Below are positions 7,422-61,147 of a stretch of 64,000 nucleotides of DNA, in pieces. The stretch comes from an uncultured Bacteroidales bacterium (GTDB taxonomy: Bacteria > Bacteroidota > Bacteroidia > Bacteroidales > DTU049): assembly GCA_964526285.1 (NCBI GenBank), contig CAZGIW010000002.1, forward strand, positions 23,594-87,593. Reading direction: 5' to 3'. The position numbers and the translations under genes were made by a program. Each line of letters begins with the position of its first letter. Position 1 is the stretch's first letter. The notes beneath the pieces are model-generated. The model saw nothing but the letters and a program-made list of their open reading frames with translations. It was not told the origin of the DNA and did no database searches.

Positions 7422-10226
7422 CTAATAACTGTACACTCCGTATTTTGAACGATAAAACTTTTTCTCCTCCTCGCTAAGGTTTGTTAATATGCGTACCTGA
7501 GGTATTTCTCTTGCAACCCTGCGAATTTCTTTTGATGAACTGGATGATGGCATAATAAGCACTTTGAGCGACTGACAGGTGTGTAAATGATGGAGGTCAC
7601 TGCCAATATATCCCGATATATCAAGATATTCAAGTGATGGTAGTTCAGAAATAAAGTCAAGTGAACTAAAATCTTGTTGAATGGCAAGATATCTTAACTT
7701 TTTTAGTTCCTTCAATTGCGAAAGATTTGTTTCTTCTCCATAAAATGTTGATAATGTCAGTGCTTCGAGATTCTTTAACTTCGTGAGTGGACTTATGTCT
7801 GAAATATAACTGTAGCTCAAATGCAAATATTTTAATGATGACAGGTTTTCTATGCCATTTAAATTCAAATTGCTATTGCTGGATAAGTCAAGTTCAGTTA
7901 TTGAGGTGCACTTTGAAATGTGACTGATGTTAATAATCTCATTATTCGTGGCATGAAGCACCTTCAATCCGGGAAAATTTTCTATGCCTTTCAGATGAGA
8001 TAAACTGTTTTCACTAACATCAAGATGTGTAATATGTTGCAAAACAGCTTTGTCAATATTGCTGTGGCCAGGAATGACAATATTGTTGAATAATACAATG
8101 CTGTCTGAAAAATATGTGAGAGACTGAAGTCCGGTGCTCCTTAGTGTCACTCTTTGAAGATTGGGTGCATTTGAAATCAGTATGGCTAAATTTCCGTGCA
8201 TGCTCAGGTTGTTGTTGTAGGATAAATCAATTTCCTCAAGTGCAGGGCATATGGGTAGGGTTGAAAAATCAGCTTCTGGAAGACTCCTGATTTCAAGTTT
8301 TTTCAGATTTTCCATTTTTTCAAGTGTGCTCAAATCACGAACCTGTGTAAATGAAATGTTGAGTGATTCAACATTTTGAAGTTGTGCAAGAAAGCCAATG
8401 CTTTCAACCGGATTCATTGATATGTCAACTTGCTTCAGCCCGGGATAATTCACAAGATGACCCATGTGCAAAATGTCGTTGTTGCTGAGATTCAAATTCT
8501 CCAGCTCAGGAAAAACAGAGAGTTTGTCAATGTCTTCAATTCTCATATCTGTCAAAGATAGCTTTTGTAACTTATTGAATGCAGAAAGTTGTTCAATCCA
8601 TGCAGAGTTGTTTGGTTGAGAGTTGTGAATACTTAAGCCCTTTAACCCTTTAAACTCTGTAATCAGGCTGATATCAAAATCACTTTTATTGTTGATTTCA
8701 AAATTCTTTAATGTTCCGGATTCATATAAACGCCTGATTTTATTAATGGTGCCACCTTCGGAAATACTGAATGACTTCCATGATGTTTCCCGGTTTTTGG
8801 CAAGCAAATCGTAGGTCTTTGAATATATAATGTCCGTGAGTAAAGGTCGTTGCCAGTAAAATGATGAATATGTGAAAAATGTTCTGCTTTTTAATGAAGG
8901 ATTGATGCGTTCGCCCGCCGGATTACTTTCAATGTATTGAAGAAGATGGGGTAATCCGGCACTGTTCATGTCAACCAAATAGTCTATGTCTGGATGTTCG
9001 CTGTTTTTTAAGTTGAATTTTGTGATAACAGCATCCCAGTTGAACAAACTAACAGCAATAAACACAATTAAAATAGCGAAACTGTTGGAACGGAACAAAT
9101 AATAAATGTTTTTTGTCCTTAATATCTTAATGAAGGCAGTAATCAAGCCAATTACAAGTAGTGCAAGCAGCATAAAAATAATAATTCTTCTGTATGTCAG
9201 TGCATAAGTGGAAATATAAATGCCGTTTCTCAATGCACATGAAAGTGCCATAAATATGTTCTGGATTATCCATGCATATGCAAGTATTTTAAGCGATTTG
9301 TTTTTCTCAATAAAATTTAATTTTCCTCTGAACATTAATAAAATCAATAAAATAGCCATCACACATGAGAAAATCAATGTAAAAATACCTTTGTGAAGAT
9401 ATTCGGCATATGTGAATCCCTCCGGAAGTTTCATGCCTGTCCAGACAAATGATATGTCAAGCACATTAATGGCAAGAATCATAAAATTGAGTAATGCAAA
9501 TAGCACAACTCCCGATTGTAGTTCAATTTTTTCGTCAAGTGAAAACCACAGAAAACGATTTTTTGAAGCTTCAATCTTTTCCCTGTTAGTTTGTGTGTTG
9601 CTTACTGTTTCAAAAAAGTCCCATTTTTTGATATATCTTGTGTACATAAAACCATACACAAGCAAAAAACCAAGCAATGTGAACATAATCCACTCAAACG
9701 AAATAAAATCAAGATTGATGAATTTGGTAATTTCCTTAAACAGTGGGTTGGCCGACTGATACAAAAAGAAAAACATGGCAACCACAATAAAAATGAAAAC
9801 ACCCATTGTGATTACAGCTCCCCATTTGATTTTTCTTTTTCGTTTCTCCTCACCTGTTCTTCTGCGTATCACAGCATCGGCAATGACAAATCCAGGCGAT
9901 GACAAATATGAAAATGTAGCGTAGGATATGGCTGCAAAAGGAGATGAGTTGAGGCTTATACTCACACCTGCCAGATAGGATATGGCGAAGTAGAAACCAA
10001 AAACCGATAATGTGGTGGAATTGAGAAATACCGAAAATCCAGTTAAACCCGTTATCCCCACGCCCAGCAACCATAATTTGTTTTTTACCAGTTCGGGCTT
10101 GTAAATGCCAAGCAAAACAGGCATAATCAATGAAAATAAAAAGAAATTAAGACCTGCGCCCTGTTTGTAAAACAAAAAACTAAACAGCGCAGTGCCAATA
10201 ATCAGGATTAAATCATTCTTTTTCAT
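7422..10226 (-). CDS. polytopic membrane protein (DUF4173-like N-terminal half) fused to a C-terminal leucine-rich repeat domain
   Basis: About 11-12 hydrophobic segments in residues 1-400. Residues about 505-905 carry about 16 internalin-type LRRs (LxxLxxLxLSxNxI). Confidence 0.7.
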   Translation of the reverse strand: MKKNDLILIIGTALFSFLFYKQGAGLNFFLFSLIMPVLLGIYKPELVKNKLWLLGVGITGLTGFSVFLNSTTLSVFGFYFAISYLAGVSISLNSSPFAAISYATFSYLSSPGFVIADAVIRRRTGEEKRKRKIKWGAVITMGVFIFIVVAMFFFLYQSANPLFKEITKFINLDFISFEWIMFTLLGFLLVYGFMYTRYIKKWDFFETVSNTQTNREKIEASKNRFLWFSLDEKIELQSGVVLFALLNFMILAINVLDISFVWTGMKLPEGFTYAEYLHKGIFTLIFSCVMAILLILLMFRGKLNFIEKNKSLKILAYAWIIQNIFMALSCALRNGIYISTYALTYRRIIIFMLLALLVIGLITAFIKILRTKNIYYLFRSNSFAILIVFIAVSLFNWDAVITKFNLKNSEHPDIDYLVDMNSAGLPHLLQYIESNPAGERINPSLKSRTFFTYSSFYWQRPLLTDIIYSKTYDLLAKNRETSWKSFSISEGGTINKIRRLYESGTLKNFEINNKSDFDISLITEFKGLKGLSIHNSQPNNSAWIEQLSAFNKLQKLSLTDMRIEDIDKLSVFPELENLNLSNNDILHMGHLVNYPGLKQVDISMNPVESIGFLAQLQNVESLNISFTQVRDLSTLEKMENLKKLEIRSLPEADFSTLPICPALEEIDLSYNNNLSMHGNLAILISNAPNLQRVTLRSTGLQSLTYFSDSIVLFNNIVIPGHSNIDKAVLQHITHLDVSENSLSHLKGIENFPGLKVLHATNNEIINISHISKCTSITELDLSSNSNLNLNGIENLSSLKYLHLSYSYISDISPLTKLKNLEALTLSTFYGEETNLSQLKELKKLRYLAIQQDFSSLDFISELPSLEYLDISGYIGSDLHHLHTCQSLKVLIMPSSSSSKEIRRVAREIPQVRILTNLSEEEKKFYRSKYGVYSY

Positions 10227-11797: not shown

Positions 11798-12160
11798 TCA
11801 CCCCAATCTCACAGCCTTCAGTGTATCATCAACTGCTGCCATCGTAAAAATAGCTGTTGCAGCTTTTTGCATGGTGCCCTCATAAATGTCTTCAGCAAAT
11901 ATTTCAACCAGTACTTCAAGTTTTACTCTGCCAATATTTGCAATTTTTCCTGAAACTTCTGCAATCATTCCCGACTTCAATGGTTGGTGAAACTGGAGAT
12001 TGTTGACTGAAATTGTTACCATCTTTCTGCGTGTGTGCCTCACAGCCGTAATATAAGCAATCTCATCCATCCACTCAAGTGTAATGCCCCCAAACAATGT
12101 TTCATGATCGTTCAGATGACAGGGAAATATAATTCTGCTTTGTTTTGTTTCGGTATTCAT
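11798..12160 (-). CDS. acyl-CoA thioesterase (hotdog fold)
   Basis: HLNDHETLFGGITLEWMDEIAYI and SVNNLQFHQPLKSG are typical of the YciA/Acot family. The ATG at 12160 follows a TATTTTTG -7 box, and the longer track ORF start is unlikely. Confidence 0.75.
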   Translation of the reverse strand: MNTETKQSRIIFPCHLNDHETLFGGITLEWMDEIAYITAVRHTRRKMVTISVNNLQFHQPLKSGMIAEVSGKIANIGRVKLEVLVEIFAEDIYEGTMQKAATAIFTMAAVDDTLKAVRLG

Positions 12161-12172
12161 AAATTTTTTTTG

Positions 12173-12180
12173 CAAAAATA
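12173..12180 (-). promoter_or_regulatory. candidate -7 box TATTTTTG for the thioesterase gene
   Basis: The reverse complement of CAAAAATA matches TAnnTTTG, 13 nt upstream of the ATG at 12160. Confidence 0.35.
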
Positions 12181-12213
12181 GAAAAAAAATTTGGTCAGTG
12201 AACAAATGTTTAT

Positions 12214-12221
12214 TAATTTTG
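12214..12221 (+). promoter_or_regulatory. candidate -7 box TAATTTTG for the DUF134-led operon, bracketed by direct repeats
   Basis: Matches TAnnTTTG, 25 nt before the ATG at 12246. CAGTGAACAA occurs at 12196-12205 and 12222-12231. Confidence 0.4.
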
Positions 12222-12245
12222 CAGTGAACAATAGTTCATTAAAAA

Positions 12246-12689
12246 ATGAAAAACAGATCCAGAACCGCAAGAAAAGTATCAGTGTTGCCGGTTATCAAAG
12301 GCTTCAGACCATTCGGGGTGTCAGTTGAAAAACCTGATAAAACTCCTGTGGTTTTATTGCTTGAAGAATATGAGGCAATCAGACTATGTGATTATGAAAT
12401 GATGAATCATCATGCTGCATCTTTTGAAATGGGGGTGTCACGACCAACATTCACACGTGTTTATGCTTCGGCATTACGTAAAATTGCAAAAGCAATGGTG
12501 GAGGGAAGACCTGTTTCTATTGAAAGCGGGAAGGTCTATTTTGACAGTGAATGGTATAAGTGCAATTCATGCGGATGTGTGTTTACTCATCCTGAAAAAC
12601 TTGAACCTTTGCACGAGTGTGCCCTTTGTGGTGAAGCAGATATAGTTTGCTGTTCTGAAGAAGTGAACAAAGAAATTATTAACCAATAA
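12246..12689 (+). CDS. DUF134 (UPF0251) putative DNA-binding regulator with C-terminal Cys4 zinc ribbon
   Basis: GFRPFGV...LLLEEYEAIRLCDYEMMNHHAASFEMGVSRPTFTRVYASALRKIA is the DUF134 sigma-70 region-4-like HTH core. The tail has CNSCG..CALCG. Confidence 0.7.
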   Translation: MKNRSRTARKVSVLPVIKGFRPFGVSVEKPDKTPVVLLLEEYEAIRLCDYEMMNHHAASFEMGVSRPTFTRVYASALRKIAKAMVEGRPVSIESGKVYFDSEWYKCNSCGCVFTHPEKLEPLHECALCGEADIVCCSEEVNKEIINQ

Positions 12690-12702
12690 AAAATAAATAA
12701 TT

Positions 12703-13407
12703 ATGGAAGAACAAATTTTTTCAATGCCAAGAATCGGAGAAAAAGCGCCTGAATTTAAGGCCATAACAACTCAGGGTGATATTAATTTTCCTGCTGACTA
12801 CAAAGGAAGCTGGGTGATTTTATTCAGCCATCCGGCTGATTTTACACCTGTGTGCACATCAGAGTTTATGACTTTTGCCTCAATGGAAAAGCAGTTCAAT
12901 GAAGCCAATTGCAAGTTGGTTGGTTTATCAGTTGACGGATTGTATAGTCATATAGCATGGCTTCGTACAATCAAGGAAAAGATTGAGTATAAAGGAATGA
13001 AAGATGTTGAAGTAACGTTTCCTTTGATAGAGGATATCACTATGGAAGTTGCAAAAAAATATGGTATGATGATGCCCGGAGAAAGCAATACAAAAGCAGT
13101 TCGTGCTGTATTTGTCATTGACCCTGAGGGTATTGTGCGTACAGTATTGTATTATCCACTTAGTTTGGGTCGCAATTTTGATGAGTTATACAGAATAGTG
13201 ATCGCACTGCAGGCTGCAGATGAGTTTAAAATTGCAACACCAGCCGACTGGCGTCCCGGTGACGATGTGATTGTTCCCACTGCTGGTTCATGCGGAGTTG
13301 CAAAGGAAAGAATGGAAAACAAAGAAGAAATGCACTGCTATGATTGGTTTTTCTGTACAAAAAAACTGGATAAGGACACAGTGCTGAACAAAATTATTAA
13401 AAAATAG
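12703..13407 (+). CDS. peroxiredoxin (Prx6/archaeal-type)
   Basis: Peroxidatic Cys motif FSHPADFTPVCTSEF. C-terminal CYDWFFC pair as I recall from archaeal-type Prx. Confidence 0.85.
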   Translation: MEEQIFSMPRIGEKAPEFKAITTQGDINFPADYKGSWVILFSHPADFTPVCTSEFMTFASMEKQFNEANCKLVGLSVDGLYSHIAWLRTIKEKIEYKGMKDVEVTFPLIEDITMEVAKKYGMMMPGESNTKAVRAVFVIDPEGIVRTVLYYPLSLGRNFDELYRIVIALQAADEFKIATPADWRPGDDVIVPTAGSCGVAKERMENKEEMHCYDWFFCTKKLDKDTVLNKIIKK

Positions 13408-13499
13408 ATTGTTTGGGTTGAAATCCGGAAAATCATGAAGGAATTTTGTTTTCTGATATGGTTTTCCGGAATTTAAAAAAACAAAAGGGAAAAAAAATT

Positions 13500-14012
13500 A
13501 TGAAAACAGCAATATCAGCAGTTGAAAATTCATTTGAATCAAAAATTGACAGACAATTTGCCCGATGTGGTTTTTTTGTTATTATTGATCAGGAAACCGG
13601 ATCAGTTGAATTTCTTCCAAATCCTAACATTGACAAAGAGGAAAATGTGGGTGCAGCAACTGTTGAATTGCTCAATTCACGTAACATAAAAAAGGTTGTT
13701 GCAGGTGATTTCGGAATCAAAGTCAAGCCTTTGCTTGACAGTTTGAAAATTCAGATGATTGTTATCAGTGATAATTCTCTCACTGTGAATGATATAATAG
13801 GAATGTTAACAAAAACAAGAAAAGTTATGCCAAAAATGGATGGAACAGGCCCCGATGGAAAAGGTGCAGGCACCGGACGGGGATTGGGAAGATGTGGAAA
13901 ATCTTCTCAAAAGGAAAAACTCGATCAACTTGGAAAAGGATTGGGAAACAAGCGAAAGACTGGAGGTGGACAAGGCAAGGGCAAAAGACTTAAAGGTGGT
14001 TCAAAAGATTAA
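13500..14012 (+). CDS. NifX/NifB-C-terminal-like (COG1433) cluster-binding domain fused in frame to a DUF5320-like Gly/Arg-rich tail
   Basis: The ATG at 13500 gives MKTAIS..DRQFARCGFFVIID (NifX-like). From the internal ATG at 13827 the sequence MPKMDGTGPDGKGAGTGRGLGRCG matches the canonical DUF5320 N-terminus. Confidence 0.65.
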   Translation: MKTAISAVENSFESKIDRQFARCGFFVIIDQETGSVEFLPNPNIDKEENVGAATVELLNSRNIKKVVAGDFGIKVKPLLDSLKIQMIVISDNSLTVNDIIGMLTKTRKVMPKMDGTGPDGKGAGTGRGLGRCGKSSQKEKLDQLGKGLGNKRKTGGGQGKGKRLKGGSKD

Positions 14013-14036
14013 TACATTAAGAAAAAGGAGGAAATT

Positions 14037-14291
14037 ATGCCAGGTTTAGATCAAACAGGTCCTTTTGGACAAGGCTCAATGACAGGACGCCGAATGGGGC
14101 GTTGTGTAAGTAATCAACAAATGAGTGAAGAAAATTTTAGAAATCAGTCTTTTTCTGATAATCAATCAGTAGATTCAGGTTTTGGGCGAGGGCTGGGTGT
14201 AGGACGGATGAACCGGAATAATACTGGTCGCGGCTTTGGTTTTGGCAGGGGAAAAGGTTGCGGACAAGGATTCAGAAGAAGAATGGGTTAG
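14037..14291 (+). CDS. DUF5320 domain protein
   Basis: MPGLDQTGPFGQGSMTGRRMGRC N-terminus with a Gly/Arg-rich tail. Preceded by AGGAGG at 14026-14031. Confidence 0.6.
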   Translation: MPGLDQTGPFGQGSMTGRRMGRCVSNQQMSEENFRNQSFSDNQSVDSGFGRGLGVGRMNRNNTGRGFGFGRGKGCGQGFRRRMG

Positions 14292-14302
14292 GAAAAAAAA
14301 AG

Positions 14303-14396
14303 CAGAAGCAGCATCCCGTGACATTGTTTTTTCATAATGTTTGGGCGAAAAATCATGTAAAAAATCATGTAAAAAAAAGCGGGGTGCTGTCTTCTG
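14303..14396 (+). other. long-range imperfect inverted repeat enclosing a 12-nt tandem repeat (intra-operon structured element)
   Basis: 14303-14318 pairs with 14380-14396 (17 pairs by hand, including one G-U, with a 1-nt bulge). The loop holds AATCATGTAAAA x2 (about 14350-14373). A T-rich tract follows. Confidence 0.45.
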
Positions 14397-14456
14397 TTTG
14401 TATTGAAACTGACAGGTGTTTATTAGTTATTAATGAATATTTTATATTTGACGAAA

Positions 14457-14741
14457 ATGACCGAAATTCAACAAAAATTATGTCTCATTATAAACAAACA
14501 TAATTGCACAAAATGTGGAAAATGTTATGAGATTTGTAAAGATGGTGCTGTTGAAAGAGTGAAGAACCAGTTTTGTTCAAAATGCATCAGATATTGTATT
14601 TCTCTTGATGTGCCATGTAATACTTTTTATTATTTAATAGTTCAGGAAAAATGCACATCTTGTGGCAAATGTATAGAATCATGCCCCGTTGGCGCAATAG
14701 AATCTGTTGTCCCGAAAAATGAAAACGAAATAATTGAATAA
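14457..14741 (+). CDS. small ferredoxin-type iron-sulfur protein
   Basis: CTKCGKCYEICKDGA and CTSCGKCIESCPVGA are CxxCxxCxxxC(P) motifs, plus a central CSKCIRYC. The start is uncertain (14433 or 14457). Confidence 0.6.
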   Translation: MTEIQQKLCLIINKHNCTKCGKCYEICKDGAVERVKNQFCSKCIRYCISLDVPCNTFYYLIVQEKCTSCGKCIESCPVGAIESVVPKNENEIIE

Positions 14742-14746
14742 AAAAA

Positions 14747-15085
14747 ATGAAAAAAATTATCGCAATTCCAATGGAAAACGGTGTGCTTTGTGCACATTTT
14801 GGTCACTGTCAGCAGTTTGCAATTGTTGAAGTGAATGAAAATAATATTGAATCTGTAAAAGAAATAACACCGCCTGAACATCAGCCCGGACTCTATCCAA
14901 AATGGGTGGCAGAATTCGGAACAACGGATGTGATTGCCGGAGGCATGGGACAACATGCCGTGAATTTGTTTAATGAACAAAATATCAATGTGTTTGTAGG
15001 AGCACCCCTGAAAGGAGCACGTGAACTTGTTGAAGATTTTATCAATGGAAATCTTTCTCTGACAGCAAATTACTGCAGTCATTAA
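14747..15085 (+). CDS. NifX/NifB-like (COG1433) dinitrogenase FeMo-cofactor-binding-domain family protein
   Basis: AIPMENGVLCAHFGHCQQFAIVEV...VIAGGMGQHAVNLFNEQNINVFVG is the typical family pattern. Confidence 0.75.
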   Translation: MKKIIAIPMENGVLCAHFGHCQQFAIVEVNENNIESVKEITPPEHQPGLYPKWVAEFGTTDVIAGGMGQHAVNLFNEQNINVFVGAPLKGARELVEDFINGNLSLTANYCSH

Positions 15086-15117
15086 GATGCTCTTGTTTTT
15101 TGATAAAGATTTGAGAT

Positions 15118-15981
15118 ATGATAAAAATTGCCGTGGCCAGTGGTAAAGGTGGGACAGGAAAAACGATGCTTGCCGGAAACTTAGCTGTTTTTTTGAGCAA
15201 ACAATTCAAGGTTTTACTCACAGATTTGGATGTGGAAGAGCCCAATAGTTCGTTTTTTGTCAAAGGCAATGAATCTCTTGTTACTGAAGCTTTTAAAAGT
15301 ATTCCTCAATGGAAACAGGAAACATGTGTTTTGTGTGGTAAATGTGCAGAAAATTGCAATTTTCATGCGGTCATCAGATTAGGACCCAATATTTCAGTCT
15401 TCAATCAATTGTGTCACTCCTGTTTTGCCTGTTCGGAATTATGTCCAACAGATTCTTTACCAATGGGGAAACACAAAATTGGAGAAATCAGGCATGTTGA
15501 AAATATTAATTCTATACTTATTGAGGGAAAATTACAAATTGGTGAAGAACAGGCTGTGCCTCTAATCCGGCAAACCAGACAATATGCTGTGAATTATTTT
15601 TCCAATGCTGAAATACAGATATATGATTGTCCTCCAGGAAACTCATGTCCTGTAGTGGCTGCTGTTGAAGAAGCTGATTATGTTTTGTTGGTTACTGAAC
15701 CCACTCCTTTTGGACTCAACGATTTAAAAATTGCAGTTGAAACGATGGAGAACCTTGGAAAGAGAATTGGGGTTGTTATAAACAGAGACGGAACAGGGAA
15801 TAACGAAGTTGAAAAATTTTGTACAAATAAACAGATAGAAGTGGTTGGAAAAATTCTTTATGACAGAAGGATTGCAGAATCTTATGCAAGAGGGGAGTTG
15901 GTATTTAATAAAATTGGTCATCTAAATCAGTCTGTCCAAAATATTGCTGAGAATTTGATAAAAAAGTTCAGTCATGTATGA
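15118..15981 (+). CDS. MinD/ParA-superfamily P-loop ATPase with inserted 2x[4Fe-4S] ferredoxin domain (COG1149-like)
   Basis: Deviant Walker A ASGKGGTGKT. Insert CVLCGKCAENCNFHA + CHSCFACSELCPTDS. Confidence 0.8.
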   Translation: MIKIAVASGKGGTGKTMLAGNLAVFLSKQFKVLLTDLDVEEPNSSFFVKGNESLVTEAFKSIPQWKQETCVLCGKCAENCNFHAVIRLGPNISVFNQLCHSCFACSELCPTDSLPMGKHKIGEIRHVENINSILIEGKLQIGEEQAVPLIRQTRQYAVNYFSNAEIQIYDCPPGNSCPVVAAVEEADYVLLVTEPTPFGLNDLKIAVETMENLGKRIGVVINRDGTGNNEVEKFCTNKQIEVVGKILYDRRIAESYARGELVFNKIGHLNQSVQNIAENLIKKFSHV

Positions 15982-16849
15982 AATAGTGATTTTATCAGGA
16001 AAAGGAGGCACCGGAAAAACCTCAATTGCTGCATCTCTTGCAATGATTGCATCAAAGGAAGTGGTTGTTGCTGATTGTGATGTGGATGCTGCAAATATGC
16101 ATTTGTTGCTCAATCCTGATTTTGCAAAGATTGAAGATTTTTATAGCGGATTGCTTGCTGTTGTTGATAATTCTGTTTGTACAGCATGTGGAAAATGTGT
16201 CAGTATTTGTCGATTTGATGCACTGAGTTTGAATAATTCAGGCTGCCATGTGAATGAATTTAATTGTGAAGGATGTGGGTATTGTGAGAAAATTTGTCCC
16301 GAAAAAGCAATATCTATGCTAACAAGAAAGTCAGGACATGTGTTTGTCTCAACAATAAAATCAGGGGGTACAATGGTGCATGCCAGACTTGAACCGGGAG
16401 GAGAAAACTCAGGAAAGCTGGTTGCCAAAGTAAAAAATGAAGCCGTAAAACTTGCTCATAACCAGGGAAAGGAATATGTTGTTGTTGATGGATCTCCCGG
16501 TATTGGATGTCCTGTGGTTTCTTCTTTGTCAGGTGCATCAATCGTCTTGCTTGTTACTGAACCATCAATTTCTGCATTGAATGATATGAAACGACTTTGT
16601 CAGTTGCTGGATAATTTTAAAATTTCAGCAGCCTGTGTTATAAATAAATCTGATCTGGATAATGTTTCTGTGAGTGAAATCAAAGAATTTCTTTATGAGA
16701 AAAGCATTCCATTGGTTGCTGAAATAACTTACAATAAAGTATTTACAGACGCAATGATGAATGGAAAAACCATTGCAGAGTTTGATGAGCATTTGAAAAA
16801 AATGAGTATTGATATTTGGAAAAAAATAAAACAACTTTTAAATAAATAA
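15974..16849 (+). CDS. MinD/ParA-superfamily P-loop ATPase with inserted 2x[4Fe-4S] ferredoxin domain (paralog)
   Basis: LSGKGGTGKTS. Insert CTACGKCVSICRFDA + CEGCGYCEKICPEKA. Overlaps the preceding paralog by 8 nt. Confidence 0.8.
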   Translation: MYEIVILSGKGGTGKTSIAASLAMIASKEVVVADCDVDAANMHLLLNPDFAKIEDFYSGLLAVVDNSVCTACGKCVSICRFDALSLNNSGCHVNEFNCEGCGYCEKICPEKAISMLTRKSGHVFVSTIKSGGTMVHARLEPGGENSGKLVAKVKNEAVKLAHNQGKEYVVVDGSPGIGCPVVSSLSGASIVLLVTEPSISALNDMKRLCQLLDNFKISAACVINKSDLDNVSVSEIKEFLYEKSIPLVAEITYNKVFTDAMMNGKTIAEFDEHLKKMSIDIWKKIKQLLNK

Positions 16850-16858
16850 AAAAAAATT

Positions 16859-17197
16859 ATGAAAATTGCATTTACTTCAACAGGACCCGCATGGGAATCT
16901 ATCATTGATTCTCGTTTCGGAAGAGCAGATTATATTGTTATGTTTGATGAAGATACAGGAAATCTTGATGTGTTGGACAATACGTCTGTGCAGAATGAAG
17001 CTCATGGTGCTGGAACAGCTACAGCACAAAAGGTTTTTGCAATGAGCCCCGATGTCCTTATCACAGGAAATGGCCCTGGTGGAAATGCTGCATCAGCCCT
17101 CAAGCAAATGAATATGAAGATTTATGTAAATGCCCATAATCTCAGCCTCAGAGAAGCTTATGAACATTATAAAAATGGCAAACTGAACGAATTTTAA
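16859..17197 (+). CDS. NifX/NifB-like (COG1433) family protein
   Basis: IDSRFGRADYIVMFDEDTG...VLITGNGPGGNAASALKQMNMKIY. Confidence 0.75.
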   Translation: MKIAFTSTGPAWESIIDSRFGRADYIVMFDEDTGNLDVLDNTSVQNEAHGAGTATAQKVFAMSPDVLITGNGPGGNAASALKQMNMKIYVNAHNLSLREAYEHYKNGKLNEF

Positions 17198-17212
17198 TAA
17201 ATTAGAGAATTT

Positions 17213-17725
17213 ATGTCCGGAATGACACATCTTTACACAGGGAATGGAAAAGGCAAAACAACTGCTGCACTTGGGCTTGCAATTCGTGCTGCTGGCGCAG
17301 GTAAAAAAGTTTTTATCGGACAGTTTGTGAAGGGAATGTACTATTCTGAAATGGAAGCATTAAAAAGATTTCCGGAAATTGATTTGTTTCAGTTTGGACT
17401 TGATTGTTTTATTGTGAACAAACCAACACAAAAAGACATTGATGCTGCAAAAACCGGACTAGCTGAAACTGAAATGGCCATGGCAAGCTCTGAGTACGAT
17501 ATGTATATTCTTGACGAAGTGTGTATTGCCATCCATTATGATTTGTTTACAGTTGAAGAATTAAAAAATGTACTTTTTTCAAAACCTGAAAATGCAGAAT
17601 TGATACTTACAGGTCGCTACGCAACTGATGAACTTTATGAGATGGCTGATTTAATTACTGAAATGAATGAAGTGAAGCATTATTTTAATAATGGAATTCA
17701 AGCAAGAATAGGAATTGAATTTTGA
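17213..17725 (+). CDS. CobO/BtuR-like P-loop protein (cob(I)yrinic acid a,c-diamide adenosyltransferase family)
   Basis: LYTGNGKGKTTAALGLAIRAAGAGKKVFIGQFVKG and LDEV..A are typical of COG2109. Confidence 0.75.
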   Translation: MSGMTHLYTGNGKGKTTAALGLAIRAAGAGKKVFIGQFVKGMYYSEMEALKRFPEIDLFQFGLDCFIVNKPTQKDIDAAKTGLAETEMAMASSEYDMYILDEVCIAIHYDLFTVEELKNVLFSKPENAELILTGRYATDELYEMADLITEMNEVKHYFNNGIQARIGIEF

Positions 17726-17744
17726 AAAATTGATTTGAAATATA

Positions 17745-18443
17745 ATGAAATTATGTGGAAACCAAAAGGTTAAATTAAATATCATAATTGATATAATATT
17801 GTTTTTGTTGTTGGGATTGATAGCAGGAATTGGGTTTTTACTTAAATATGTTTTAATTCATGGAAGCGAAAGAAACATCATTTATGGGAATGATATTGAT
17901 TTGCTCTTTTTGGGGATGGACAGGCATGAATGGGGATATGTTCATTTTGTATTGAGTATAGCCTTTATTGGCTTTCTTGTTTTGCACATTATTTTCCATT
18001 GGAATATGATTATTTGTATGTTGCAAAGGTTATTTGTTTTAAAAAAAATCAGATATCTTGTTGTTTCATTCTTTATCGTAATTTTTGTGTTGTTTTTTGT
18101 TTTTCCATTTATTGTTCGTCCTGATATTGTTCAAAAAGATGCTTATTTCAGAAATTTCAAACATCAAAGCAATCAGAAAATGAGTGAAGAAACGGATGAG
18201 GTACAATATAATGACAAAAAACACCATCAGCATCATGATGATGATTTTCATCAGTATGAAATCAATGGGCAAATGACTCTTCAATCTGTTGCAGATGCAT
18301 ATGATGTGTCTTTGGATTTACTGACTAATGAGGTAAATATTCCTGTTTCTGAAAAAGATATTAAACTTGGGAAACTAAAAAAAAATTACGGTTTCACCAT
18401 GACAGATATTGCCAGGGCAATTGATAAAATTAAAAACAGATAA
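17745..18443 (+). CDS. DUF4405-like His-rich membrane protein with soluble C-terminal domain
   Basis: Four TM segments with conserved His (HEWGYVHFVLS..LHIIFHW), a His-rich linker (KKHHQHHDDDFHQ), and a small helical C-terminal domain. Confidence 0.5.
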   Translation: MKLCGNQKVKLNIIIDIILFLLLGLIAGIGFLLKYVLIHGSERNIIYGNDIDLLFLGMDRHEWGYVHFVLSIAFIGFLVLHIIFHWNMIICMLQRLFVLKKIRYLVVSFFIVIFVLFFVFPFIVRPDIVQKDAYFRNFKHQSNQKMSEETDEVQYNDKKHHQHHDDDFHQYEINGQMTLQSVADAYDVSLDLLTNEVNIPVSEKDIKLGKLKKNYGFTMTDIARAIDKIKNR

Positions 18444-18445
18444 AA

Positions 18446-19042
18446 ATGAAACACATAAACTGTTCTGCTTGCAAAATTTATACTTGCTATGATGGGAAAG
18501 GCTGTGCTCAGGGCCATGGCTTTGATGATTATATATCCAATACGAAACAGGAATATGCAAAGGATGAAAACAATAAAATTCTTTCAGTCTCTTCTCAGGT
18601 AGAAAGTGATAATTACATGAAGGGGACAAGACTGGAAGAACTCATTGATTTTGCCCTGAAGATGAATTTCAAAACAATTGGAATAGCCCATTGTGTTGGG
18701 TTGATGAACGAAACCAAACAACTAAAAACGTTTCTTGACAAACATTTTGTTGTGCATACAGTGTGTTGCAAGTTTTCTGGAATTAATAAAAGGGATTTCA
18801 ATATTCCGCAAATCAAAAACGACCGATATGAAGCAATTTGCAATCCTGTTGGACAGGCAATGATTCTAAATGATCTGAAAACAGATATGAATATCATTGT
18901 TGGTTTGTGCGTGGGGCATGATATGCTGTTCAATAAATATTCAGAAGCACCTGTTACCACTTTTATTGTGAAAGACAGAGTGACCGGACACAACCCTGCA
19001 GCAACTGTTTATTCTGATTATTACAAGAGAAAACTATCTTAA
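18446..19042 (+). CDS. DUF1847-like Cys-rich metal-binding protein
   Basis: N-terminal CSACKIYTCYDGKGC, then conserved HCVGL, VCCKFSG and GLCVGHD. Start lies 3 nt after the previous stop. Confidence 0.5.
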   Translation: MKHINCSACKIYTCYDGKGCAQGHGFDDYISNTKQEYAKDENNKILSVSSQVESDNYMKGTRLEELIDFALKMNFKTIGIAHCVGLMNETKQLKTFLDKHFVVHTVCCKFSGINKRDFNIPQIKNDRYEAICNPVGQAMILNDLKTDMNIIVGLCVGHDMLFNKYSEAPVTTFIVKDRVTGHNPAATVYSDYYKRKLS

Positions 19043-19072
19043 AATCAATATATTAATTTAATTTTAAAAGAA

Positions 19073-20254
19073 ATGGATACAAAAAACAAGGGATTCAACA
19101 CAAAACTGATTCATGCAGGAGCTTTTGACGATGAGTTTGGAAGTGCTACTGTTCCCATTTATCAGACATCAACATTCAAATTTAAAAATGCACAACACGG
19201 TGCTGATTGTTTTTCAGGCAAAAGCGACGGATATATTTATACACGTATAGCAAACCCTACAATCAGAGCATTTGAGAAAAATGTTGCAGAGCTTGAAAAC
19301 GGATATGATGGCATAGCCACAAGTTCAGGGATGGGAGCAATAAACAGTGTTTATATGGCATTGCTGGGAGCAGGGAGTCATATTGTAAGTTCTGATTCTG
19401 TGTATGGACCTGCAAGGGGACTTCTTGAGATGGACTACGTGAATTTTGGAGTTGAAGCCACATTTGTCAATACATCAGAAATTGATAGAATCAGTGCTGC
19501 AATCAGACCAGAAACCAAGGTATTGTATATTGAAACACCCGCCAATCCAACCATGAATGTGACGGATATTGCAGCCTGTGCAAAACTGGCTCATGACAAT
19601 AATATTTTGCTTGTTGTTGACAATACTTTTAGTTCTCCATATCTTCAAAAGCCCTTAAATCTGGGCGCGGATGTTGTTTTGCATTCAATTACAAAATTTA
19701 TCAACGGACATGCGGATATTGTGGGAGGTGTTATTGTTGCCAAATCTGAAGACATTTACAAAAAGATAAGGCATACAATGGTGTATACAGGTTGTAATAT
19801 GGATCCAACTCAGGCATTTATGGTGTTGCGTGGATTGAAAACACTGGGAATAAGAATTGACAGGGCACAGGAAAATGCAATGAAGGTGGCAAAGTTTCTT
19901 GAATCTCATCCTGCTGTTGATTGGATCAGATATCCAGGGCTGGAGTCTCATCCTCAGTATGAACTTGTAAGGAAACAAATGAGTGGCTTTGGCTCAATGA
20001 TGAGTTTTGGTTTGAAAGGGGGATATGAAGCAGGACGCAAACTGATGGATAATGTGCATCTGGCTCTTCTTGCTGTTTCTCTTGGAGGAGTTGAAACGCT
20101 TATTCAGCATCCTGCATCAATGACACATGCTGCTGTCAGTCATGAAAATAAACTCAAAGCAGGTATTACAGATGATTTGGTCAGGTTTTCTGTTGGAATT
20201 GAAGATGTGGATGATATTATTGATGATCTCACACATGGATTAGAGGCAATATAG
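19073..20254 (+). CDS. Cys/Met-metabolism PLP-dependent enzyme, methionine gamma-lyase-like
   Basis: NTKLIHAG, YTRIANPT and SITKFINGHADIVGG (PLP lysine) indicate the trans-sulfuration family. Confidence 0.8.
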   Translation: MDTKNKGFNTKLIHAGAFDDEFGSATVPIYQTSTFKFKNAQHGADCFSGKSDGYIYTRIANPTIRAFEKNVAELENGYDGIATSSGMGAINSVYMALLGAGSHIVSSDSVYGPARGLLEMDYVNFGVEATFVNTSEIDRISAAIRPETKVLYIETPANPTMNVTDIAACAKLAHDNNILLVVDNTFSSPYLQKPLNLGADVVLHSITKFINGHADIVGGVIVAKSEDIYKKIRHTMVYTGCNMDPTQAFMVLRGLKTLGIRIDRAQENAMKVAKFLESHPAVDWIRYPGLESHPQYELVRKQMSGFGSMMSFGLKGGYEAGRKLMDNVHLALLAVSLGGVETLIQHPASMTHAAVSHENKLKAGITDDLVRFSVGIEDVDDIIDDLTHGLEAI

Positions 20255-20326
20255 CCTTCTAAAATGAAATAGTTCATTTTTTATCCCAGTTTTTTATGTA
20301 TTTTTGTAAGTCTTAAATAACTAAAT

Positions 20327-22699
20327 ATGAAATCTATTAAATGTCTTTTATTCCTTTTTATGTTTCTGCCGGCTCTCTGTTATGCTCAATCAATCAGCGG
20401 AACAATTATGGATGCAGAATCCGGCAATCCTCTCCCTTATGCCACAGTGTTGTTGTCGCCTGCCAACAAGTCGTTTGTGTCAGATCTCAAAGGTAACTTT
20501 TTTATTCAGGCAAAGCCCGGAACTTACACTCTGAAGGTGTCTTATCTGGGCTATGCATCATCGCAGAATGTGTATATTCTGGATGAGGGAGAAAAACTTG
20601 ATGTCACTGTGACGCTGAAAAAAGAACCCTATTTTCTCAGTGGGGTTGAAATTATTGGAGATAAAAGTGGCAATAAAGTGGTGAAAATAAACAGTATAAA
20701 TGCAGAACAATTGCAACTTATGGGCACTGGTGAAGTTGGCGAAGTACTTCGCAGTATTCCCAATGTGGGTGGTGTGAGAAGGGGAGGAGCTGTGCTCGAT
20801 CCTGTGGTGAGAGGCTTCAAGTATTCACAACTTGGAGTGTATATTGACGGATTGTTCAGTATTGAAGGCGGATGTCCCAATCGGATGGATCCAACAGTGA
20901 GTCGTGTTGATGCCCACGACATTGAACGCATTGAGGTCATTAAAGGTCCATATGCACTCAAATATGGTCCCAATTTCGGCGGAGTTATTCGTCTTGTTTC
21001 TCACAATCCGGTGTTTTTTGATACTGATAAACCAGATTTTCGCCTCAATGCATTTGCCGAAATGACACCATGGCTTGGCATGAGAGAACATATCCGTCTC
21101 GATGCAGGAAACAGAAAAACTTCTGTCATGGCCTTTGGAGGAAAAACCGATTTTGGAAACTATGTGGATGGAAACGGCGATGTGCTGAAAATGCATGTGA
21201 TGAAATACAATTTTGGTTTCAAAACTTTACACCGGTTTTCTGACAAAAGCATGATAAAACTCACCTTTAATAATCTGCAGGGTCGAAATGTGTTGTTTGC
21301 CGGACTTCCAATGGACGAAAGATCTGATAATACCTGGTTTGCACATGCTGATTATCTGGGTGTTCTGCCATTTGAAAAAAACAAAACCATCGCTTTTTCG
21401 GCATATTATGCTTCAGTTGAACATATTATGGATAACTTTGAACGCCCGATTGCCGATACTGTCGCAGCTGTATCAACAGTGTATGCAGAAACTATGGGAG
21501 CCAAAGTAAGAACCAACTGGATGCTCACTGAAGACGGAGAGTTGACCGCAGGTATTGATTTTCACCGTATTCAGAAAGACGGACAAAGAGTGAGAAATAT
21601 GATTGCGCAAGCACCAACAGCCAATGGTACAATCCCTAAAGCTGTGGATCAGCTATGGGCAAATGCAGTGATTGATAATGCAGGCCTGTTTGCCGAATGG
21701 AATTGCACCAAACGAAATCACAGAAGATTTTTGGCCACAAGATTGGACTACAATTCTGCATTTTCTGATGATATCATTATCCTCCACCCAATGTTGGGTG
21801 AAATTTATGCCTATGGTAGTGACTCAGTGTCAAGTAGTCATTTGAATTTGAGTGCCAGTGCAGGCTATTCTGTTGATCTCAATCAGTATTTCACCACTTC
21901 AATTGCCGTTGGCAGGGGAGTCAGAAGCCCTGATATGCTTGAGAGATTCATTATTCTCTTGCCAGTTGGTTATGATAATTATGACTATCTGGGTAATCCG
22001 CATCTTTTGCCTGAAAAGAACAATGAAATTGATATTACTTTGAAATATGAAACTCACCGCATGGGTGCAGCCGAACTTACTGTGTTTTATTCTTATGTGC
22101 AGGATTTTATTGCAGGAGAAAGAATTCCACCTTCACAGCAAAAACCATTGTCTTTGGGTGTGCTGGGAGTAAAGCAATACTATAATGCTGAATATGCTAC
22201 ATTTACAGGTTTTGAATTTGCCTTTTCATCACCAATCAAAAATAAACTGGTGTTCTCTGCAAATGCTGCATACACAATGGGAACCATAGGAGAAGCAACA
22301 AAAGCAATTATTGACCCTTCTCAACCTGTCAATCAACAGGTGACAGGGGATACATTACTTCTCAACGATCCTCTGAATGAAATTCCACCTTTCGAGGCAA
22401 ATGCCAAACTTATGTTGTTCCTTTTTGACAGAAAGCTTAATCTGAATCTCAATACAAGAATAATTGCAGGTCAGAATCGTGTGTCTGAAGCTTTTTATGA
22501 ACAAACAACTCCGGGAACAGTATTATTAAACTTTTATGCAGGCTATAAACTCAGTGAAAAAGTGACACTCAATGGCGGGGTTTATAATTTGCTTGATGAA
22601 TACTATTATGAACATCTGAACAGAAGGATGATCGGTTCGTCTCAGAAAATTTTTGAACCCGGAAGACGGTTTTTTATTAATGTCACTATAAAAATTTAA
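20327..22699 (+). CDS. TonB-dependent receptor with N-terminal carboxypeptidase-regulatory-like domain
   Basis: Signal peptide. CarbopepD_reg-like ISGTIMDAESGNPLPYATVLL. Plug region (IEVIKGPYALKYGPNFGGVIRL). C-terminal beta-barrel ending RRFFINVTIKI. Confidence 0.85.
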   Translation: MKSIKCLLFLFMFLPALCYAQSISGTIMDAESGNPLPYATVLLSPANKSFVSDLKGNFFIQAKPGTYTLKVSYLGYASSQNVYILDEGEKLDVTVTLKKEPYFLSGVEIIGDKSGNKVVKINSINAEQLQLMGTGEVGEVLRSIPNVGGVRRGGAVLDPVVRGFKYSQLGVYIDGLFSIEGGCPNRMDPTVSRVDAHDIERIEVIKGPYALKYGPNFGGVIRLVSHNPVFFDTDKPDFRLNAFAEMTPWLGMREHIRLDAGNRKTSVMAFGGKTDFGNYVDGNGDVLKMHVMKYNFGFKTLHRFSDKSMIKLTFNNLQGRNVLFAGLPMDERSDNTWFAHADYLGVLPFEKNKTIAFSAYYASVEHIMDNFERPIADTVAAVSTVYAETMGAKVRTNWMLTEDGELTAGIDFHRIQKDGQRVRNMIAQAPTANGTIPKAVDQLWANAVIDNAGLFAEWNCTKRNHRRFLATRLDYNSAFSDDIIILHPMLGEIYAYGSDSVSSSHLNLSASAGYSVDLNQYFTTSIAVGRGVRSPDMLERFIILLPVGYDNYDYLGNPHLLPEKNNEIDITLKYETHRMGAAELTVFYSYVQDFIAGERIPPSQQKPLSLGVLGVKQYYNAEYATFTGFEFAFSSPIKNKLVFSANAAYTMGTIGEATKAIIDPSQPVNQQVTGDTLLLNDPLNEIPPFEANAKLMLFLFDRKLNLNLNTRIIAGQNRVSEAFYEQTTPGTVLLNFYAGYKLSEKVTLNGGVYNLLDEYYYEHLNRRMIGSSQKIFEPGRRFFINVTIKI

Positions 22700-22703
22700 G
22701 CAT

Positions 22704-23078
22704 ATGAAAAGCAAAATCAACATATTGATAATAACAGCTCTTCTGGGGTTAATTTTTCTATCCTGTGAAAAGCAAATTGACCAGGTGAGTGTAACATATC
22801 GAATTGTCAATTTTCAGGACGGATTTACTGTATTCTACAAACATCAGTCAGATACACTTGATAAAGAAACTGTCACCGGAGCTTACACGCTTGCAACGCC
22901 ATGGACATATAGTTTCAAGGCAGAACCGGGCGATATCATTTATGTATCAATGTCAGATACTGTGGAAAACTCATTCTCTCGCGTTCAGGTTTTAATTAAT
23001 GGCAAAATATATAAGGAAAAAAGTCGTTCTGATGACAGATTTATGCCAGTGGTTGTGTCTGGAGTTGTCCCTTTTTAA
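22704..23078 (+). CDS. small hypothetical lipoprotein
   Basis: Lipobox LIFLSC. Lies 4 nt after the TBDR stop. No family recognised. Confidence 0.45.
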   Translation: MKSKINILIITALLGLIFLSCEKQIDQVSVTYRIVNFQDGFTVFYKHQSDTLDKETVTGAYTLATPWTYSFKAEPGDIIYVSMSDTVENSFSRVQVLINGKIYKEKSRSDDRFMPVVVSGVVPF

Positions 23079-23099
23079 AAAAATGAAATCTATAGAAAA

Positions 23100-23933: not shown

Positions 23934-23936
23934 GTT

Positions 23937-25539: not shown

Positions 25540-25646
25540 GATAGATTAAACTTATACAAATCACATGAGTCAAAGAATTGTTTTTTTTTAAAAAATATTT
25601 GGTATAAATTTTGTAATTTTGAATTGTCTTTTAAAAATCTCCAGTG

Positions 25647-26093
25647 ATGAAAAAACTTAAACTTACTTTAATCATTGTTTTTCTTGTGAATATTGTTTTT
25701 GCCCAGGATGCTAAACAAAGCAGTCCTGAAATTTCTTTTGAAAAACTGGTTCATGATTTTGGAACAGTGATGCAGGGCGACAAAACCGAATATGAATTTA
25801 AATTTACAAACACAGGAAAAGAACCATTGATTATTAGCGATGTCCGTTCTTCCTGCGGGTGTACAGTTCCCGAATGGCCTCGAAACCCCATTTTGCCTGG
25901 TAGCTCAGCCAACGTAAAAGTTAAATACAACTCTAATATTGTAGGAAATATCAACAAACAGGTGACAATTATTTCCAATGCTGCTAATAGCCCTACAGTT
26001 CTTCGTATTGCAGGCAAAGTTGATAAAATGCCTACCGAAGTTTTACCTTTTCAGCAACAAAATGCTGCACCCGTACCAACGAACAGAAAATAA
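25647..26093 (+). CDS. DUF1573 domain protein
   Basis: Signal peptide. FEKLVHDFGTV..G....EFKFTNTGKEPLIISDVRSSCGCTVPEWP. Confidence 0.8.
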   Translation: MKKLKLTLIIVFLVNIVFAQDAKQSSPEISFEKLVHDFGTVMQGDKTEYEFKFTNTGKEPLIISDVRSSCGCTVPEWPRNPILPGSSANVKVKYNSNIVGNINKQVTIISNAANSPTVLRIAGKVDKMPTEVLPFQQQNAAPVPTNRK

Positions 26094-26112
26094 CCTTTAA
26101 TACCATACTAGT

Positions 26113-58956: not shown

Positions 58957-58965
58957 TTACTTAAA

Positions 58966-59292: not shown

Positions 59293-59302
59293 AAAAAAAA
59301 AT

Positions 59303-61145: not shown

Positions 61146-61147
61146 AG

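Follow-up and report, generated by a model that had tools for sequence, protein, structure and literature searches.

A Bacteroidales gene cluster predicted to be a DUF134-regulated variant of the orp system

What kind of system is encoded by the 12 genes that lie together at positions 12246-19042 of a 64,000-nt stretch of DNA from an uncultured Bacteroidales bacterium (the window, within which all coordinates are given)? They specify, in order, a DUF134 protein, a peroxiredoxin (Prx), the NifX-like protein NifX1, a stand-alone DUF5320 protein, a ferredoxin (Fdx), NifX2, the MinD-like ATPases MinD1 and MinD2, NifX3, a CobO-type protein, and DUF4405 and DUF1847 proteins (Table 1). The original prediction took them to be a dedicated, oxygen-protected system, without an assigned pathway, for the assembly, storage or delivery of an Fe-S or other metal cluster. 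The gene cluster is real, and it is a variant of the known and widespread orp (orange protein, ORP) system rather than a system of a new kind. Since 2011 the orp system has gone under the label "anaerobe-specific", without an agreed function; the orp operons and the ORP complex of Desulfovibrio were reportedly described by Fievet et al. in that year. The statement that no pathway had been assigned thus overlooked orp, and it stands to the extent that the ORP complex is still without an established role.

By homology and synteny, the core of the window cluster is orthologous to the Desulfovibrio orp cluster, as judged from the identity between NifX3 and ORP, the paralogue-wise matches of the ATPases, and the shared gene order. 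An ORP is a protein of ~110-120 residues that has the Nitro_FeMo-Co fold but lacks cysteine ligands; NifX3, with 112 residues and no cysteine, fits this description and shares 34% identity with D. gigas ORP (PDB 2WFB; E 5e-20). Its gene follows the ATPase pair in 74 of the 80 loci recovered by a one-genome-per-species scan with MinD2 (relative loci from other genomes are labeled L with a number). NifX1 and NifX2 match ORP barely or not at all. NifX2 corresponds to positions 265-365 of the NCBIfam MrpORP protein, namely the C-terminal Di-Nase domain (E 7e-34), and carries the Di-Nase motifs CAHFGHC (CxHFGHC) and, at its C-terminus, CSH (C-x-H); against NF041136 it scores 117.8 bits with a cut-off of 450, and the Mrp ATPase part of MrpORP is not present in it. 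NifX1 is nearest to MTH1175 and TM1816. Indeed, the NifX-like sequences of the window lie nearest to MTH1175, TM1816, PH0822 and ORP rather than to NifX or NafY. MinD1 is 36% identical to the first ATPase, and MinD2 39% identical to the second, of one Desulfovibrionaceae orp locus, whereas they share only 29% identity with each other, which argues for an old duplication maintained as a conserved pair. With the ORP sequence as the query, 58 loci of close ORP relatives were retrieved from Desulfobacterota. Their typical order is DUF134-ORP-MinD1-MinD2-NifX2-type, and the best match of each gene is the corresponding window paralogue. Judged solely by synteny, Orp7 would be the DUF134 protein. PDB sequence searches with the DUF134 protein, DUF1847 and the full MinD-ferredoxin architecture returned no solved relative.

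Within the orp system, Orp3 and Orp4 are ATPases with 2x[4Fe-4S] motifs, Orp8 is ORP, and Orp9 is MrpORP, which hands Fe-S clusters to ORP-complex proteins and whose Di-Nase domain binds a [3Fe-4S] cluster (PMC6345978). Like the orp operons of D. vulgaris Hildenborough (DvH), D. gigas and O. alaskensis G20 (PMC6345978; PMC8359166), the window contains a Cys-free ORP-type Nitro_FeMo-Co protein, two paralogous P-loop ATPases with two [4Fe-4S] motifs each, and a Di-Nase domain with CxHFGHC; Desulfobacterota orp loci, in turn, also have a DUF134 gene and a small GRG-rich gene nearby. The window departs from orp in that the ORP gene (NifX3) is placed after the ATPase genes and not before them, and in that the Di-Nase domain is free-standing (NifX2) and not fused to an Mrp ATPase as in MrpORP. 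It adds an IssA-like NifX-DUF5320 fusion, Prx, Fdx, CobO, DUF4405, DUF1847 and an enzyme resembling methionine gamma-lyase (MGL). Furthermore, it is predicted to use DUF134 and a palindromic operator rather than OrpR and sigma-54. No gene for a sigma-54 enhancer-binding protein of the OrpR type occurs near the cluster, and no TGGCAC-N5-TTGC-like sigma-54 site was found on the + strand at 12100-12245, in a search that performed at chance level.

Two other groups of proteins invite comparison. MrpORP, Nbp35-Cfd1 and ApbC (PMC6345978) are, like MinD1 and MinD2, deviant Walker A dimeric P-loop ATPases tied to Fe-S delivery. Unlike the Mrp ATPases, MinD1 and MinD2 lack the CxxC bridge motif and have an inserted ferredoxin domain, and the window cluster has no Mrp-type gene. 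The nitrogenase carriers NifX, NafY and the C-terminal part of NifB share with the NifX-like proteins the small alpha/beta fold (PF02579) that holds anionic metal-sulfur clusters. Unlike the nitrogenase cofactor systems, however, the window has no nif structural or assembly genes: none of the ~45 ORFs scanned is nifHDK, nifEN or nifB, as had been stated at the outset.

How much of the cluster is conserved? The 80 loci were compared with all window proteins by tblastn, and gene frequencies were counted over the 37 that had enough flank. MinD1 and NifX3 were each found in 36 of these and DUF134 in 33, followed by NifX2 (23), NifX1 (20) and DUF5320 (12, an undercount owing to its low complexity). 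CobO was present in eight, DUF4405 and Prx in four each, MGL in three, and Fdx and DUF1847 in one each. The core gene order was found again in more than 130 loci of other genomes, and thus the clustering is not due to chance. Homology and synteny together delimit a conserved core of DUF134, MinD1, MinD2 and the ORP-like NifX3, and a Bacteroidota extension of NifX1, DUF5320 and NifX2. The cluster is a conserved core with a phylum-level extension and varying redox, metal and sulfur accessories, and there is no fixed 12-gene unit. The original prediction had regarded the 12 genes as one conserved set; in the comparison of neighborhoods Fdx, DUF4405, DUF1847 and Prx proved to be lineage-specific. 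It had likewise considered the set notable in a Bacteroidota background, whereas a single scan places the core in dozens of species of Bacteroidales, Lentimicrobiaceae, Prolixibacteraceae and Rikenellaceae.

In these families and in Tenuifilaceae the order is DUF134-NifX1-DUF5320-NifX2-(DUF89, ZIP or CGGC)-MinD1-MinD2-NifX3-(accessories), the 3' accessories being radical SAM, DUF4405, CobO, Mrp/NUBPL, OsmC and disulfide oxidoreductase genes. Accessory genes of the sister loci include those for an Mrp/NUBPL ATPase, a ZIP transporter, CGGC and radical SAM proteins, with true Mrp/NUBPL genes lying within L014, L019 and L216. The two closest relatives, L214 and L003, have flanks that match the window, namely a 4HBT thioesterase at one end and MGL with a TonB receptor at the other. 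L214 is without Fdx and DUF4405, and L003 without Prx, DUF4405 and DUF1847, its ferredoxin being located elsewhere; Fdx is absent from the equivalent position in both. An MGL-like gene next to the cluster recurs in six loci (after it in L003, L013, L031, L214 and L216). The MGL-like gene is a probable 13th member, and the boundary originally drawn at 19042 was too tight. Note that in L214 a disulfide oxidoreductase (12248-13194) and the TonB receptor (13444-15826) are each called as two adjacent fragments, which may be due to frameshifts or pseudogenes, or to errors in the assembly of that contig.

The order in Sulfurovum, Sulfurimonas and Sulfurospirillum is DUF134-(GRG-rich protein)-MinD1-MinD2-NifX3. 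The orp core is common, together with the palindrome described below, in Campylobacterota metagenome-assembled genomes (MAGs; L023, L024, L029, L051, L058-L060, L066, L071 and L076). These carriers, which belong to the three genera just named and to others, are sulfur-oxidizing and often microaerobic. In light of their lifestyle the label "anaerobe-specific" for ORP looks too narrow.

The DUF134 protein scores 74 bits against PF02001 (cut-off 27). In its AlphaFold2 (AF2) model, a three-helix core formed by residues 35-90 (pLDDT 83-96) superposes on sigma-70 region 4 at 0.6-0.9 Å and on the DNA-binding domain of DeoR at <1 Å. The Cys ribbon, CxxCxC...CxxC, whose residues C106, C109, C125 and C128 do not vary among 44 homologues, is an addition in the Bacteroidota DUF134 members and possibly serves as a metal or Fe-S sensor. 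Alignment of the regions 5' of DUF134 genes revealed the palindrome TGAACA-N2-TGTTCA, which is probably the DUF134 operator. Sites were counted in 47 loci from -150 to +10 of DUF134, the rest of the loci providing the background. At two or fewer mismatches the palindrome occurs in 40 of the 47 loci (130-fold enriched), at one or fewer in 22 (218-fold), and in its exact form in 12 (628-fold). Nearly all of the "background" copies precede cluster genes, namely those for DUF5320/GRG-rich proteins, GRG-NifX fusions, a radical SAM protein and an HdrC/B-like pair. The palindrome adjoins a TTAnnTTTG box in most Bacteroidota loci and occupies the spacer between the -35 element TTGACT and the -10 element GATATAAT in Campylobacterota; it is present in Desulfobacterota too, and hence in three phyla. 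In the window, two copies bracket the box TAATTTTG just 5' of the ATG at 12246. From the Bacteroidota consensus TAnnTTTG we take this box to be the -7 element. The simplest reading of the arrangement is that DUF134 represses its own gene through promoter occlusion. The regulatory role originally proposed for the DUF134 protein is supported by both the sigma-70 region 4-like helix-turn-helix (HTH) of the model and the conserved palindrome in its own promoter.

The palindrome has a GAAC-N4-GTTC core, and a LexA/SOS box was considered. This assignment was rejected because Bacteroidota SOS motifs differ, those of Bacteroidetes being GGA-N5-TCC and CTAA-N5-TTAG (PMC8565304), and because the sites track the cluster in three phyla. 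In a Prolixibacteraceae MAG (L012, 5160-6916), a unit of operator and promoter lies 5' of two genes that are both upstream of DUF134; one is for an HdrC-like Fe-S protein, and the other has a CCG-like Cys motif and is HdrB-like by eye only. The position of this unit suggests that heterodisulfide reductase-like genes can join the same regulon. A literature search on DUF134, DUF5320, DUF1847 and COG1149 found no functional study.

A second set of observations concerns NifX1 and DUF5320. The P. furiosus protein IssA consists of a NifX-fold domain and a disordered, cationic Gly-rich tail; it keeps Fe and S in store as thioferrate and is able to rebuild the clusters of ferredoxin (PMC5524996). Its clade is defined by an IPR003731 domain with a C-terminal tail, a pI >= 9, < 5 Cys and, over the final 40 residues, a Gly content >= 20% (supplement of PMC5524996). 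NifX1, with a pI of 9.78, 2 Cys and 28% Gly in its last 40 residues, falls within all of these numerical limits, the likeness being one of composition and architecture. As in IssA and the "IssX" clade (PMC5524996), an N-terminal IPR003731/Nitro_FeMo-Co domain is followed by a disordered cationic Gly-rich tail. This tail is a DUF5320 segment of 62 residues. The domains named in the original prediction were all confirmed by Pfam, but the first of its two DUF5320 genes is this C-terminal tail of NifX1 and not a separate gene.

There are also differences. The NifX1 tail contains no aromatic residue and no proline-rich part, whereas that of P. furiosus IssA has 14 aromatics in 70 residues, plus proline (PMC5524996); in the window, aromatic GRGFGFGRG repeats are found in the separate DUF5320 protein (pI 11.7), the head of which, MPxxDxTGPxGxGxxTGRxxGxC, is conserved. 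IssA belongs to a hyperthermophilic archaeon and NifX1 to a mesophilic bacterium. Finally, most NifX1 relatives have the domain and the tail as two genes: the fusion is confined to eight close relatives, and elsewhere a DUF5320 gene of 63 codons begins no more than a few bases after the gene for a NifX1 of 105-107 residues. Campylobacterota have independent N- or C-terminal GRG-rich fusions to NifX domains. That such fusions have arisen repeatedly suggests a joint function of domain and cationic segment.

On the basis of these homologies we lean slightly towards the view that the cluster is a Bacteroidales orp variant that acts as an ATP- and ferredoxin-driven machine, under DUF134 repression, for the storage and delivery of Fe-S (or related thiometallate) clusters. 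It would build, hold and hand over such clusters under reducing conditions. The DUF134 protein would bind the two operators that bracket the -7 box and occlude the promoter of its own operon, until released by a metal, Fe-S or redox signal. The cationic tail of NifX1 and the free DUF5320 protein would hold anionic Fe-S material electrostatically, much as IssA does thioferrate. MinD1 and MinD2, as a heterodimeric ATPase with four [4Fe-4S] clusters, would employ ATP and ferredoxin electrons to mobilize or insert clusters, and NifX2, through its Cys/His ligands, and the Cys-free NifX3 would carry these to client proteins. Sulfide could come from the MGL-like enzyme; the DUF4405 haem protein and DUF1847 could serve as electron donors or acceptors, and the peroxiredoxin would protect the system. 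An Fe-S function is favored because nearly all of the components are Fe-S in nature, because Mrp/NUBPL, ZIP, CGGC and radical SAM genes accompany the sister loci, because MrpORP transfers Fe-S to ORP-complex proteins, and because Dde_3197-3199 covary with feoA and flavodoxin in G20 (PMC10533852). The metal-cluster role first suggested for the locus is consistent with this homology and with the literature on ORP, MrpORP and IssA.

Several points weigh against this interpretation. All of the Bacteroidota functions are transferred from homologues at 30-40% identity, and the pairing of the operator with DUF134 is drawn from co-occurrence only. NifX1 does not have the aromatic-rich tail of IssA. 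CobO scores above the equivalog cut-off of corrinoid adenosyltransferase (178.6 bits against TIGR00708, cut-off 167.75), so that its presence here may be coincidental; alternatively, it may reflect a need for low-potential reductant. A 141-nt spacer lies 5' of the Fdx gene, and the operon is predicted from gene layout. Lastly, the authors who described the ORP complex themselves favor a role in cell division, and native ORP binds an Mo-Cu rather than an Fe-S cluster (PMC6345978).

The last of these points leads to the main rival, according to which the ORP-like protein and the ATPases sequester or build Mo-S-Cu clusters (thiometallates of Mo/W and Cu), for the detoxification or supply of Cu/thiomolybdate in sulfidic habitats. 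Here the region directly 3' of the cluster is of interest. At 20327-25139 (+) are genes for a TonB-dependent receptor (TBDR), a 124-residue protein without a family, MbnP and an MbnH-type di-haem peroxidase, which by homology looks like a copper-uptake module. The TBDR-MbnP-MbnH adjacency is retained in L003 and L214, MbnP also comes after the cluster in L030, and L012 has a TBDR-MbnP pair that diverges from the cluster, with the operator contained in the common intergenic region. The module is followed, 3' of a gene for a CoA-binding protein, by two tandem paralogous DUF1573 (HYDIN/VesB-like Ig) genes at 25644-26502 (+); the pair also comes after the MbnPH module in L214. For a thiometallate function speak the module and its variants, the [S2MoS2CuS2MoS2]3- cluster held by native D. 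gigas ORP (PMC6345978), the shared absence of Cys from ORP and NifX3, and the strong response of the G20 orp genes on copper surfaces (PMC10533852). The best NCBIfam match of the TBDR is indeed the TonB copper receptor family, but at 208 bits it lies under the cut-off of 472; moreover, the adjacency occurs in few lineages (five loci), no operator precedes the TBDR of the window, and the window has no Mo/W transport or molybdopterin genes. The ATPases with 2x[4Fe-4S], the CxHFGHC domain, the IssA-like tail, Mrp and ZIP all indicate Fe-S, and we regard thiometallate handling as unlikely.

The accessory genes bear on another possibility, namely that only the orp core of 4-7 genes is functional and that Prx, Fdx, CobO, DUF4405, DUF1847 and MGL are unrelated same-strand neighbors. 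Prx (336 bits against NCBIfam PRK13189, cut-off 211) is in or near the cluster only in L001, L010, L020, L027 and L214. L014 and L214 have OsmC, and L003, L006, L009, L040 and L214 a pyridine-nucleotide disulfide oxidoreductase; thiol-based antioxidant genes thus recur with the cluster as passengers, in line with the oxygen protection that had been proposed. CobO, which has a GNGKGKTT P-loop, lies within the cluster in 13 of the 80 loci and in L214 and L216, and DUF4405 in five of the 80.

DUF4405 proteins, relatives of FezC of the ferrosome, bind haem b (PMC11334425), and by analogy that of the window is probably a haem-b electron carrier. It has three hydrophobic segments, histidines at 39, 61, 67, 81 and 85, a linker with HHQHH and, at the C-terminus, a soluble domain. 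With FezC and the DUF4405 haem-b cytochromes (PMC11334425; bioRxiv 10.1101/2020.01.10.902569) it shares the membrane domain, the conserved histidines and a context of iron-storage or redox genes; unlike FezC, it has only the three hydrophobic segments, together with the His-rich linker and the soluble domain, and no fez genes or ApbE are nearby.

DUF1847 contains two conserved Cys groups, C6/C9/C14/C20 and C83/C108/C132/C155. Its AF2 model (pLDDT 92) shows a four-stranded Rossmann-like domain and an N-terminal helical part, with the Cys groups at an N-terminal knuckle and at strand ends. Comparison of the model with the PDB gave generic Rossmann-like matches only (best E 5e-3, TM 0.37) and no functional lead, and DUF1847 is, from its model, a candidate for a new variant of a metal-cluster-binding fold. 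Linkage to the cluster is confined to the window, L214, L216, L084, L139 and L068. As a regular partner of the cluster it was rejected outside Bacteroidales, 69 of 71 loci being unlinked (Desulfosporosinus, Geomonas and other Desulfuromonadales).

The notion of a mosaic agrees with the occurrence of the add-on genes in just 1-8 of the 37 well-covered loci, with the different add-on sets of the closest relatives, with the DUF1847 loci of other phyla that have no orp genes, and with a CobO that reaches the equivalog cut-off of a housekeeping enzyme. It is, however, difficult to reconcile with the CobO-DUF1847-MGL trio that stands beside the MinD ATPases in three Bacteroidales (the window, L214 and L216), or with the DUF134-DUF1847 pair in Pelovirga (L139). 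The add-ons are, furthermore, all redox, metal or sulfur proteins, and they are separated by gaps of 2-32 nt with no terminator-like sites between genes, in a terminator scan that is uninformative for Bacteroidota. We think a mosaic quite unlikely.

Could the cluster mature a complex cofactor, akin to NifB-co, for an unidentified enzyme, as a nitrogenase-style assembly line without nitrogenase? It has three carriers of the NifX/NafY fold together with NifH-like dimeric P-loop ATPases, and in several sister loci a radical SAM gene comes after NifX3, preceded in L061 by the operator. That gene is nevertheless optional among the loci, the window ORFs scanned include neither a radical SAM gene nor a candidate client enzyme, and NifX3 and NifX1 lack cluster-ligating Cys; such a line seems improbable. 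The placement of the division site in anaerobes by MinD/ParA-like ATPases, as first proposed by the ORP-complex authors, would account for the morphological defects of DvH without OrpR and for the polar position of MrpORP, but it is the most improbable of the alternatives, as the likeness to MinD is one of P-loop fold only (56 bits against TIGR01969, cut-off 202, and 32-52 bits against TIGR01968, cut-off 213), no minC or minE is among the window ORFs scanned and no ftsZ or par genes are nearby, the partner genes are all for metal-cluster or redox proteins, and a shortage of Fe-S can itself give rise to morphology defects.

The features of the locus are listed in Table 1. As had been described, the ORFs are all on one strand with a single 8-nt overlap (15974-15981), and the translations contain the motifs PVCTSEF, GKGGTGKT (twice), GNGKGKTT and, in each ATPase, two CxxCxxCxxxC. 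The spacing is 2-141 nt, the successive gaps being 13, 38-92, 24, 141, 5, 32, -8, 9, 15, 19 and 2 nt; the range for the second arises from two candidate starts, 13446 or 13500, of the third ORF. The exact MinD2 protein also occurs in four other metagenome assemblies. Rfam searches, at gathering thresholds over the whole window and permissively over 11900-20400, gave no riboswitch or other RNA, the sole match being a chance lncRNA, and sigma-70 and terminator scans stayed at background level and are not informative in a genome from Bacteroidota. The 141-nt spacer between DUF5320 and Fdx, which may hold an internal promoter, showed no conserved element upon alignment with L214 and L003 and no Rfam match. 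A tandem 13-nt repeat (AAAATCATGTAAA x2) is located within it at 14348-14373.

Table 1. Coordinates of the predicted genes and promoter elements of the cluster
Feature	Position	Strand	Basis or remark
Predicted DUF134 operator 1, TGAACAAATGTTTA	12199-12212		One mismatch; between the -33 (TTTG, ~12189) and -7 elements
Bacteroidota-type -7 promoter element, TAATTTTG	12214-12221	+	Read from sequence
Predicted DUF134 operator 2, TGAACAATAGTTCA	12225-12238		One mismatch; spans expected transcription start, 8 nt 5' of ATG
DUF134/UPF0251 regulator: HTH and C-terminal Cys4 ribbon	12246-12689	+	Pfam PF02001, E 1e-20
1-Cys-type peroxiredoxin (Prx), accessory	12703-13407	+	Pfam AhpC-TSA and 1-cysPrx_C, E 2e-32
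NifX1: Nitro_FeMo-Co and DUF5320 in one protein	13500-14012 (likely start ATG 13500)	+	Pfam
Stand-alone DUF5320, GRG/F-rich, cationic	14037-14291	+	Pfam
Ferredoxin (Fdx), 2x[4Fe-4S], accessory	14433-14741	+	Pfam 2x Fer4
NifX2: stand-alone Di-Nase homologue	14747-15085	+	Pfam Nitro_FeMo-Co
MinD1: deviant Walker A P-loop ATPase with inserted 2x[4Fe-4S] (Orp3/Orp4 type)	15118-15981	+	Pfam CbiA/ParA and Fer4
MinD2: paralogous ATPase, 8-nt overlap with MinD1	15974-16849	+	Pfam CbiA/ParA and Fer4 insert
NifX3: ORP homologue	16859-17197	+	Pfam Nitro_FeMo-Co; identity to 2WFB
CobA/CobO-type ATP:corrinoid adenosyltransferase-like P-loop protein	17213-17725	+	Pfam CobA_CobO_BtuR, E 3e-61
DUF4405 membrane protein	17745-18443	+	Pfam
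DUF1847, Rossmann-like	18446-19042	+	Pfam, E 4e-54
Cys/Met-metabolism PLP enzyme, nearest MGL (probable 13th member)	19073-20254	+	30 nt 3' of DUF1847

The Bacteroidota background assumed for the DNA is borne out by domains of type IX secretion (Por_Secre_tail and CHU_C) and CarboxypepD_reg-type TonB receptors in the window, and by the closest loci, all of which are from Bacteroidales MAGs. Other features of the window lie outside the cluster. At 7422-10226 (-) is a gene for a 934-residue protein that combines a long, membrane-type N-terminal half with leucine-rich repeats (LRRs). In its place L214 has two genes, one for DUF4153 and one for the LRRs, which points to either a fusion in the window or a frameshift or split in L214. 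The HipA_C-domain kinase of 316 residues at 29400-30675 (-), the start of which is overlapped by an ORF of 110 codons, is probably part of a HipBA-type toxin-antitoxin pair. The region at 56014-63821, of low GC (0.30-0.33), carries a GmrSD-type restriction endonuclease (56014-57876, +) and, near the window end, the type I restriction-modification genes HsdS (61148-62347, -) and HsdM (62337-63821, -); it looks like a small defense island.

What is new here is the orthology of the core to orp, the operator that crosses phyla, the IssA-like fusion and the recurrent MGL-like 13th member. To our knowledge, Fe-S storage of the IssA type has been demonstrated only in a hyperthermophilic archaeon. The locus and its relatives unite orp and IssA-type features in one operon and, in the lineage of the window, in one polypeptide, and the same core and operator are common in Bacteroidales and in sulfur-oxidizing Campylobacterota. 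The predicted binding of DUF134 to this 14-bp site, and its release by a signal, can be tested concretely and at low cost. If storage and delivery of Fe-S is indeed the function, it would bear on how anaerobes of gut, sediment and digester meet a very high Fe-S demand. As a wider and decidedly tentative idea, one that we think doubtful yet worth stating, sulfide-exposed Bacteroidales, Campylobacterota and Desulfobacterota may share a DUF134-repressed TGAACA-N2-TGTTCA regulon in which NifX domains of the IssA-like kind, equipped with cationic GRG tails, keep a store of iron and sulfide in the form of an inorganic polymer that the Orp ATPase pair mobilizes. Were this so, bacteria would have a thioferrate-type Fe-S supply parallel to SUF and ISC, and the ORP complex would gain a function.

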